DNA from: Candidatus Alistipes avicola
GTDB taxonomy: Bacteria > Bacteroidota > Bacteroidia > Bacteroidales > Rikenellaceae
Reading direction: 5' to 3'
Assembly (NCBI GenBank): GCA_019118565.1
Contig: DWYR01000012.1
Location: forward strand, 13,323-77,322
DNA length: 64,000 bases
Below are positions 8,306 through 8,757 of this stretch, one piece after another. A program made the position numbers and the translations under genes. How positions within the stretch are numbered: the stretch's first letter is position 1; every line of letters starts with the position of its first letter. The notes beneath the pieces are model-generated. The model was not told where the DNA came from, did no database searches, and worked only from the letters and a program-made list of their open reading frames with translations.

Positions 8306-8550
8306 TTTTTTTCTCAAAAGAGGGGGAAACAACGCTCTTTGCCAAACTTTGCCAAACTTTGCCATCCGTTCCGAGCATCTTTCGATGAGAGGTATATTCC
8401 ATATATTATATGATAGAAAGCGGAGTGTGCAAAAGCGAAGCTCTATTCCCATCCATCCGACCGTGATCCTCGAATCTTCAAAAATTTTCCGGGGAGAGAC
8501 AATTTTTCAGAAAAAGCACTATATTTGCTTCCGAATATGAAAGAACGCTC
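8306..8550 (+). repeat. Dispersed intergenic repeat, copy B (~245 bp)
   Basis: Direct-orientation copy of 4661..4890. Its 3' end supplies the -7 box for the met leader transcript. Confidence 0.8.
8520..8527 (+). promoter_or_regulatory. -7 box TATATTTG driving the met leader and metY-metX-hom
   Basis: Perfect TAnnTTTG match about 40 nt upstream of the leader ATG. Confidence 0.55.
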
Positions 8551-8565
8551 TCTCAGAGCACCCGC

Positions 8566-8667
8566 ATGAAGTACCGCAATACATACATGAATCCGTCACA
8601 CGTCGAGGCATCCGTTTCGATGATGGGTATGATGATGTCTATGCGCAGGTATAAACGCCGGGTGTAA
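8566..8667 (+). CDS. Met-rich leader peptide (33 codons): MKYRNTYMNPSHVEASVSMMGMMMSMRRYKRRV
   Basis: Hand translation. Six ATG codons fall within nine consecutive codons (8620-8643). The ORF lies between a promoter box and a terminator, directly upstream of methionine biosynthesis genes. It is too short to appear in the ORF track. Confidence 0.65.
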   Translation: MKYRNTYMNPSHVEASVSMMGMMMSMRRYKRRV

Positions 8668-8698
8668 GATTCGTCATACAATCTCACGTGATCTTTTG

Positions 8699-8727
8699 AA
8701 TCCGGCTGTTCCCAGCCGGATTTTTTT
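8699..8727 (+). terminator. Intrinsic terminator (attenuator) between the Met leader and metY
   Basis: AATCCGGCTG-TTCC-CAGCCGGATT forms a 10-bp stem that runs into a T7 tract. It is located 31 nt upstream of the metY ATG. Confidence 0.75.
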
Positions 8728-8757
8728 ATTTCCGTCCAATCCAAAATCAATCATACC

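Follow-up and report, generated by a model that had tools for sequence, protein, structure and literature searches.

The methionine operon metY-metX-hom lies within a 64,000-nucleotide stretch of Candidatus Alistipes avicola (contig DWYR01000012.1; this whole stretch is called the window below), and it raises the question of how these genes are controlled. To our knowledge, methionine biosynthesis is governed in the known cases either through S-adenosylmethionine (SAM), by riboswitches or MetJ, or through uncharged tRNA, by the T-box. Methionine genes have been found under S-boxes, and attenuators serve His, Thr and Phe (PMC1262725). A first-pass annotation of the window proposed that a short leader open reading frame (ORF) packed with Met codons, followed by an intrinsic terminator ahead of metY, has the architecture of the trpL, pheL, hisL and thrL attenuators. 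The analysis described here suggests that this is probably correct, and that metY-metX-hom would be controlled by a Met-tRNA-sensing leader-peptide switch between a terminator and an antiterminator. Every attenuator feature that can be looked for in a sequence is present, and is kept in eight further leaders.

The elements of the locus, all on the plus strand, are the following.

8520-8527, plus strand: -7 promoter box of the Bacteroidetes type, TATATTTG, read from the sequence; the transcription start would lie about 7-10 nt 3' of the box.
8566-8667, plus strand: leader ORF from the ORF list, 33 codons and a TAA stop (8665-8667), MKYRNTYMNPSHVEASVSMMGMMMSMRRYKRRV.
8601-8622, plus strand: small hairpin whose 3' end falls on the first Met codon (-9.5 kcal/mol, z -3.4).
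8620-8643, plus strand: regulatory codon run MMGMMMSM, six AUG in eight codons (sequence and shuffle count).
8627-8679, plus strand: hairpin "1:2", formed by the Met run with CGCAGG on one side and GCCGGGUGU with the post-stop UCGUCAUAC on the other (-21.1 kcal/mol, z -4.3).
8654-8711, plus strand: candidate antiterminator "2:3" (-17.3 to -17.8 kcal/mol, z -2.7).
8698-8727, plus strand: intrinsic terminator "3:4", 11-bp stem, UUCC loop and U7 (-17.7 kcal/mol, z -6.0).
8758-10041, plus strand: metY, O-acetylhomoserine sulfhydrylase, the first regulated gene (PF01053, 1.4e-133; TIGR01326, 3.5e-188).
10047-11063, plus strand: metX, homoserine O-acetyltransferase, start ATG 10047 (TIGR01392, 1.8e-100).
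11056-12261, plus strand: hom, homoserine dehydrogenase, overlapping metX by 8 nt (PF00742, PF03447; NF004976).
12302-12330, plus strand: terminator of the operon, after hom (terminator scan).

The leader ORF begins 38 nt past the -7 box and ends 90 nt ahead of metY. The box, the 33-codon ORF with its translation and the six ATG codons had been read correctly in the first-pass annotation, save that the ATG stretch spans eight codons and not nine; the gene order that it gave agrees with the family profile matches, metY starting at the ATG at 8758. At least six ATG within nine codons are found once in the 64 kb, all six frames included, against an expectation of 6e-5, and the maximum reached in 100 shuffled windows was five, so that the run is indeed far beyond chance, as had been claimed. 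Another ATG-rich stretch, on the minus strand (56436-56457, four ATG in nine codons), was rejected, since it was equalled or exceeded in 24 of the 100 shuffled windows.

At its 3' end the leader ORF contains GCCGGGT (8657-8663), complementary to ATCCGGC (8700-8706), as had also been pointed out, and the eight nucleotides that abut its stop codon read GCCGGGUG. The Met run ends 13 nt ahead of GCCGGGU, and seven codons separate the run from the stop. The perfect stem of the terminator starts 31 nt past the leader stop, with arms AATCCGGCTG and CAGCCGGATT at 8699-8722, and runs into T7 (8721-8727). It is the 10-bp hairpin seen at first pass, brought to 11 bp by a G8698-U8723 pair. Because the gene upstream of the met locus ends with a terminator of its own (8108-8140), the hairpin at 8698 is not the terminator of that gene.

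The leader as a whole folds better than shuffled sequences (z -4.5). Three structures, 1:2, 2:3 and 3:4, are mutually exclusive and of similar energies (-21.1, -17.3 and -17.7 kcal/mol), all with z at or below -2.7. The antiterminator pairing had been judged weak when it was first noticed. This view has to be revised: the 7-bp helix is the core of a larger, two-helix structure whose stability equals that of the terminator (-17.7 kcal/mol). In the outer helix, AACGCCGGGU (8654-8663) pairs with AUCCGGC-UGUU (8700-8711) and, in the inner one, AAGAUUCGU (8666-8674) pairs with ACG-UGAUCUU (8687-8696).

From these elements it can be proposed that the attenuator tunes metY-metX-hom to charged elongator tRNA-Met and, in relatives, to charged tRNA-Cys as well. 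Transcription would start just past TATATTTG, and the leader would be translated as RNA polymerase proceeds. When methionine is ample, the ribosome would traverse the six AUG codons and reach the UAA, where its footprint would lie over GCCGGGUG. With GCCGGGUG masked in this way, or taken up again by the 8627-8679 hairpin once the ribosome has been released, the hairpin at 8698-8723 and its U7 tract would terminate transcription before metY. If Met-tRNA runs short, the ribosome would halt at 8620-8643 and leave GCCGGGU exposed. The latter would then capture the nascent AUCCGGC (about -17 kcal/mol) and pre-empt the terminator, so that the polymerase would enter metY. Translation of the leader, stalling at AUG, early termination and a response to methionine are what we infer from the sequence.

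If such a switch is used, its parts should be recognizable in other genomes. Relatives were drawn from MetY homologues at graded identity, and their contigs were then retrieved. An earlier scan of metagenomes with a degenerate MMGMMMSM pattern had returned mostly two A. putredinis haplotypes together with unrelated coding matches, and no new diversity; MetY homologues were therefore used to sample leaders. In all, nine distinct leaders were compared, that of the window and eight further ones of Rikenellaceae/Alistipes type, with MetY proteins 70-99% identical (70-84% for the eight further leaders); the counts of pairing, shuffles and spacing among relatives given below cover eight leaders. Of the genomes matched, Alistipes putredinis DSM 17216 (MetY 84% identical) is the closest, with leader MKNGITSNNSYSLIVGLSVSMMGMMMSMRRCKCRV. 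Between its DNA and that of the window, the half of the ORF coding for the N-terminal part has diverged and contains an in-frame 6-nt indel, and the two sequences are near-identical from the Met run through the terminator. The other distinct leaders are MRNCDTYINTSSRVGTSASMMMGMMMMRSSKGRV, MTKPATYDCQRREDHRGTMMMSMCMCNRFRRV, MKGSTTYPDQHEATPRGMMYMMCMRSRNNRV, MLQRITYDTRRPILPNGMMTSMMCMCNRFSRV, MTAMNTYDSPYRGTLRGMMTMGMMCMRSRFRRV and MRPNMTADSACRMRAMMMHSMCMHNRQCRG, plus the short (GUG)NTQHTYMMMSMCMRSRYRRV. The codon runs of the relatives read MMMGMMMM, MMMSMCMC, MMYMMCM, MMTSMMCMC, MMTMGMMCM, MMMHSMCM and MMMSMCM. Their Cys codons fit the chemistry, since MetY makes homocysteine from sulfide.

All nine leaders sit immediately 3' of a TAnnTTTG-type box (in one case TATCATTG) and 5' of metY-metX, and hom comes next in every relative whose contig reaches that far. 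The boxes of the relatives, TATATTTG, TATCTTTG or TATCATTG, lie 25-45 nt 5' of the leader start. The leader ORF has 21-35 codons in the eight other leaders and keeps its C-terminal module; divergence, in-frame indels included, is seen in the N-terminal peptide and in the spacers. The module common to the nine leaders consists of a Met/Cys run, 6-7 codons, an invariant GCCGGGUG-stop, 23-31 nt, and AAUCCGGC...CGGAUU-U7. In the alignment, the 3' ends of the ORFs read CCGGG(U/G)GUA(A/G), that is GCCGGGUG and then the stop, without exception. The 23-31 nt between stop and terminator are unconserved, and the invariant columns correspond almost exactly to the blocks of the module. Across the nine leaders the terminator reads (A)AUCCGGC...CGGAUU followed by a U-tract of at least seven (U7 in eight; AU7 in L206). 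Thus, of the alignment check suggested at first pass, the part concerning a short Met-run ORF upstream of metY is borne out in eight further leaders, module included, and the covariation that was to be sought in the two helices was not found.

What is conserved at the end of the ORF appears to be RNA rather than peptide. The codon preceding CGG-GUG-stop is CGC, UGC, GGC, CGC, AAC, AGC, CGC and UGC in the eight leaders (R, C, G, R, N, S, R and C): five different amino acids are used, and -GC is retained in 7/8. Moreover, the Arg codon of the tail is always CGG, while CGC, AGG and CGA are used elsewhere in the same leaders. Because the amino acid varies while -GC is retained and the Arg codon never changes, the constraint on GCCGGGUG is one on the RNA and not on the peptide.

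The geometry also fits. The last codon of the run is 10-13 nt away from GCCGGG, and 6-7 codons separate the run from the stop, in 8/8 leaders; these fixed spacings are what the model requires. With ribosome footprints of the usual size, a ribosome at the stop codon would cover GCCGGGUG in 8/8 leaders, and one stalled on the run would leave the antiterminator strand free, GCCGGGU lying presumably just beyond its footprint. The GCCGGGU:AUCCGGC helix is paired in 96% of the cells of the eight-species alignment, with no variation, and complementarity to the 5' arm of the terminator is above that of dinucleotide shuffles in 5/8 leaders. The terminator is paired in 100% of the cells in the eight species, with G-C/G-U and U-A/U-G/C-G variants. 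With the run occupied by a ribosome and the 3' arm of the terminator still to be transcribed, the antiterminator is the minimum free energy (MFE) structure in 8/8 species (-12.5 to -19.4 kcal/mol). The terminators of these species range from -12.4 to -17.2 kcal/mol, a count that leaves L201 outside; in L201 the antiterminator prevails over the terminator even in the full-length fold.

Several observations weigh against this switch. Neither strand of the antiterminator varies among the eight species, hence no covariation is seen, and the changes in the terminator are one-sided apart from one C-G variant. Since the strands are invariant, covariation counts are uninformative, and the antiterminator pairing stands on conservation and complementarity. 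Equilibrium folds keep the terminator in the MFE structure at every masked ribosome position, L201 excepted. The masked folding that had been suggested as a check thus gave a divided answer, with no switch at equilibrium and the antiterminator as MFE before the 3' arm is made; as the terminator persists at equilibrium, any switch has to be kinetic, as in classical systems. What speaks for a switch is therefore the order in which the RNA is made, together with the similar energies of the alternatives. The Met run is no more complementary to the post-stop region than in dinucleotide shuffles in these leaders (z -2.0 to +0.7), and the register of the 1:2 hairpin differs between species. No covariation is claimed for this helix, because AUG repeats readily pair with any spacer that contains CAU and the register shifts. 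Turning to initiation, the surroundings of the window leader start (CACCCGCAUG) are not A-rich, and in L211 the run is preceded by a GUG start only. It should also be noted that methionine limitation depletes fMet-tRNA as well and would thereby lower initiation on the leader; untranslated RNA defaults to termination, so that the response could be blunted. Finally, three relatives with MetY proteins 66-71% identical (L207-L209) are without any leader ORF.

In one of these, L207 (a metagenome-assembled genome (MAG) of Alistipes sp., MetY 71% identical), the box TATATTTG at about 1100-1200 runs directly into CCAATCCGACCCCTGCATAAGTCGGATTTTTT, a terminator remnant, the fusion reading AATCCGAC...GTCGGATTTTTT. 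The attenuator there seems to have been lost through a deletion that put the transcription start within the 5' arm. Two other observations concern the 5' part of the leader. A 10-codon ORF, MKERSLRAPA (8537-8569), ends in a TGA that overlaps the leader ATG (ATGA, 8566-8569). It is found in the species of the window, L210 too, but neither A. putredinis nor the other relatives have it; initiation on the leader could be influenced by it provided that the transcript begins 5' of 8537. As to the small hairpin at 8601-8622, a hairpin of differing sequence lies 5' of the run in eight leaders, the single z-scores are modest and L211 lacks the region. This element, now demoted, may be a pause or timing hairpin.

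Is another kind of sensor present at this position? Rfam 15 applied to the whole window at gathering thresholds returned tRNAs only, without any leader, SAM or T-box family, and the region 8250-8850 gave no match to a SAM class, T-box or leader family at E<=10. According to the covariance models, the leader does not belong to the Rfam leader families (His_leader, Leu_leader, Thr_leader, Trp_leader, Phe_leader and related ones), and none of the SAM riboswitches (SAM-I, SAM-I/IV, SAM-II and the other SAM families of Rfam 15) occurs in the window. The seven relatives scanned (A. putredinis DSM 17216, L002, and L201-L206) likewise gave no match to SAM, T-box or other known RNA families. The remark made at first pass that no S-box-like core is visible therefore holds for this lineage, as covered by the window and these seven relatives; most other Bacteroidota carry SAM-I at this place. 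In favour of the proposed switch, a sensor for the methionine pathway is thus to be expected at this position, given that SAM-I stands before orthologous metY genes in other parts of the phylum.

This became apparent when 69 Bacteroidota metY loci were scanned with Rfam: 46 have an aptamer ahead of metY (45 SAM-I and one SAM-I/IV). Independently of aptamers, short upstream ORFs (uORFs) rich in Cys and Met, defined by at least five Cys/Met in nine residues, were sought in 81 metY upstream regions, mostly from Bacteroidota; they occur on the sense strand in 35/81 and on the reverse complement in none. Taken together, aptamer and Cys/Met uORF stand in tandem in 32 of the 46 aptamer loci, the other 14 having the aptamer alone; 12/69 loci, including all seven scanned Rikenellaceae-type relatives, have the uORF alone and 11/69 have neither. 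In the tandem loci, the distance from the 3' end of the aptamer to the ATG of the uORF is 5-17 nt, most often 8-9 nt, the ATG chosen being the first in frame in 29/32; for L025, L047 and L053 a later in-frame ATG was assumed, the first one lying upstream of or inside the aptamer. These uORFs (among L004-L075) have 22-45 codons. As an example, L019 has SAM-I at 3200-3302, the uORF at 3314-3431 and metY at 3501; L016, L011, L056 and L066 are others. The aptamer-uORF junction is A/U-rich in the 11 Sphingobacteriia/Cytophagia loci inspected and, in 9/11, reads UAUAAAUU-UUAAAGAC-AUG or a close variant.

In loci from beyond the Rikenellaceae group, 0-2 codons separate the run from the stop (five in L049), as in ...CCMCYCMS, ...MMCCCCM or ...CCCCCCCC. 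With simple and relaxed scans, intrinsic terminators after these other Bacteroidota uORFs mostly went undetected (6/34, versus 2.1 expected), and folding the region from uORF to metY in the 11 Sphingobacteriia/Cytophagia loci revealed no common structure. SAM-I followed by a Cys/Met uORF looks like a composite of riboswitch and leader peptide. The element of the window, in turn, looks like a derivative of this arrangement that lost the aptamer and has a terminator/antiterminator pair with a seven-codon tail holding the antiterminator strand; we infer that evolution ran from the tandem to the aptamer-less form. It is possible, although we would stop short of calling it probable, that the window holds both the first described Met-codon attenuator of a met operon and the aptamer-less, terminator-bearing branch of an undescribed Bacteroidota composite, in which metY would be under the joint control of SAM, through an aptamer that perhaps gates translation of the uORF, and of charged tRNA-Cys and tRNA-Met, through stalling.

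Five Bacteroidota loci with SAM-I and no Cys/Met uORF (L032, L035, L041, L043 and L045) share something else, a conserved ORF of about 75 aa between the aptamer (about 2740-2900) and metY (3501). Its pattern is …NHRQFLK.QA.YG…GG…P…RLVS.VNIL(S/T)S.ENK…FSESIFSN, and it is without annotation.

How do other explanations of the leader compare with the proposed tRNA-sensing switch? A nascent arrest peptide, similar to TnaC or to plant CGS1, might with methionine or SAM hold the ribosome near the stop and enforce termination. The C-terminal tails are alike across species (…M-R-S/R-R-x-x-R-V-stop), and a ribosome parked at the stop would mask GCCGGGUG, which gives the right regulatory direction. However, the tail is conserved as nucleotides, since the residue that precedes RV can be R, C, G, N or S with -GC retained, and the one feature common to the phylum is the Met/Cys run, which a sensor of tRNA charging needs and an arrest peptide does not; we consider this explanation very unlikely. 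Alternatively, an unrecognised riboswitch or a protein-binding RNA would sense methionine or SAM directly, the ORF being incidental. The folding of the leader relative to shuffles and the occupation of the same locus by SAM-I in other Bacteroidota speak for it. Nevertheless, Rfam gives no match to the leader at E<=10 and none in the seven relatives; conservation outside the run, the GCCGGGUG-stop and the terminator is poor, with no aptamer-like core; L211 has lost most of the 5' part and still has the module; and the ORF, its frame and the position of its stop survive indels. Such a sensor is thus highly improbable here.

The ORF might also make a functional Met-rich peptide, either metal-binding or a methionine sink, with the hairpin as a leaky terminator or a stabiliser. 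Met/Cys-rich peptides are able to bind Cu or Zn, and the ORF is conserved, but its N-terminal part is not and can be lost, and from one part of the phylum to another the peptide differs greatly in length and composition, with a constant link to metY. Moreover, the element lies strictly between promoter and metY, the terminator precedes the genes that it would block, and the complementarity between ORF end and terminator arm has no role in that model, to which we give an equally small chance. Lastly, short ORFs are plentiful in any sequence, and one could stand by chance beside an ordinary terminator. The rarity of the run (6e-5 expected per window), the keeping of the module in nine distinct leaders, the absence of any match in the reverse-complement controls and the separate terminator of the upstream gene (8108-8140) all oppose this; the comparative data have already refuted it, and its probability is close to nil.

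Returning to the tRNA-sensing switch, the mechanism class is known, and what is new is the amino-acid specificity and the phylum. Like the trpL, hisL, pheL, thrL, leuL and ilvL attenuators, the element has a 5' leader ORF with codons for the product and a Rho-independent terminator. As in those of enterobacteria, an alternative helix forms via the 5' arm of the terminator, a sequestering helix is available in the untranslated RNA, and the position of the ribosome would decide. In contrast to them, the regulatory amino acid is methionine (plus cysteine in relatives), the host belongs to the Bacteroidota, and the 5' strand of the antiterminator is inside the ORF, directly abutting the stop. The Pasteurellales thrA leader was reportedly predicted, by Vitreschak and colleagues in 2004, to have Met codons alongside Thr/Ile codons. 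There, methionine would be one of several signals at an aspartate-family gene, whereas here it is the sole (window) or dominant one, at a methionine operon. The SAM-I riboswitch upstream of metY in other Bacteroidota occupies the same position and presumably has the same feedback role, but the signal in the window would be charged tRNA and not SAM.

Cys-codon leaders provide the other term of comparison. They have been described at cys operons of Mycobacterium, Propionibacterium and Bifidobacterium (Seliverstov et al. 2005, PMC1262725), where the run stands beside the stop and no terminator is recognisable (PMC1262725). Polycysteine leaderless uORFs are known in mycobacteria (bioRxiv 10.1101/834739), and the uORFC-8-2 motif of Rhodobacterales cysS is a Cys-codon uORF ending in a terminator (PMC8632094). 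The actinobacterial and Rhodobacterales uORFs also place sulfur-amino-acid codons before sulfur-amino-acid genes, to be read by ribosome stalling. However, they sense Cys only, while the window leader has Met codons only, a seven-codon spacer, and a canonical terminator with an antiterminator. By the features of the actinobacterial poly-Cys uORFs, the window leader falls outside their class (Met codons, seven codons from run to stop, terminator present). It is the SAM-I-linked uORFs of other Bacteroidota, with the run by the stop and no terminator, that the actinobacterial ones resemble, and not the window element. According to Naville and Gautheret (2010), leader peptides were known only in Proteobacteria and Actinobacteria, in addition to their own Firmicutes cases; in B. 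thetaiotaomicron, some 5' untranslated regions hold small ORFs "reminiscent of leader peptides", a passing mention (Ryan et al. 2020). Neither a Met-codon attenuator of a met operon nor a SAM-I plus uORF tandem was found described in the full-text literature searched, mostly open-access, so that an earlier description of either is possible.

In three Acidimicrobiia MAGs of the Actinomycetota (L017, L021 and L023), metY is preceded at about 95-147 nt by a short ORF that opens with Cys codons, MCCRCSRVDRPGADC. This ORF is possibly an actinobacterial-type Cys-leader.

If the proposed switch is real, an AUG-codon leader peptide that senses methionine would fill a gap among the known attenuators. 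Leader-peptide attenuation would then also operate in the Bacteroidota, a dominant gut phylum, whose translation initiation differs: Bacteroidota initiate without Shine-Dalgarno pairing. In Alistipes, a gut genus that is abundant yet little studied, this offers a testable regulatory element, present in A. putredinis DSM 17216. At the level of the phylum, the comparison suggests that a single locus can combine a riboswitch with a leader peptide and that the loss of one need not entail that of the other, which bears on how regulatory RNAs are exchanged. The 32 loci with SAM-I and a uORF provide a route to how riboswitches act in a phylum without Shine-Dalgarno sequences, and this arrangement could exceed the original finding in interest.

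The window contains a second leader of comparable design, for tyrosine, the Tyr case mentioned at first pass, which spans 61485-61669 on the minus strand and precedes three genes.

61548-61634, minus strand: Tyr-codon leader ORF, 28 codons with nine Tyr, MKFTNYTYSYYYYSYYSNSKGGSSYMIS, read from the sequence and preceded by a TACATTTG box.
60205-61425, minus strand: aminotransferase of the Tyr operon, downstream of the Tyr leader.
59100-60170, minus strand: DAHP synthase/chorismate mutase fusion of the Tyr operon, downstream of the Tyr leader.
58215-59048, minus strand: prephenate dehydrogenase of the Tyr operon, downstream of the Tyr leader.

Inside this leader, GGGCGGGAG is complementary to the 5' arm of a terminator at 61493-61519, with T8 at 61485-61492 (plus-strand coordinates). 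The two leaders share the box, the codon-rich ORF, the antiterminator strand within the ORF and the terminator (U8 in the Tyr case), and differ in amino acid and operon. Since a Tyr leader of the same design exists in the same genome, the organism appears to use such control elsewhere.

A last observation concerns the region 5' of the met promoter. Between the terminator of the upstream gene and this promoter, three tandem 10-nt units are found at 8339-8366, TTTGCCAAAC, TTTGCCAAAC and TTTGCCATCC, about 155 nt 5' of the promoter box; these repeats may be a protein-binding site.

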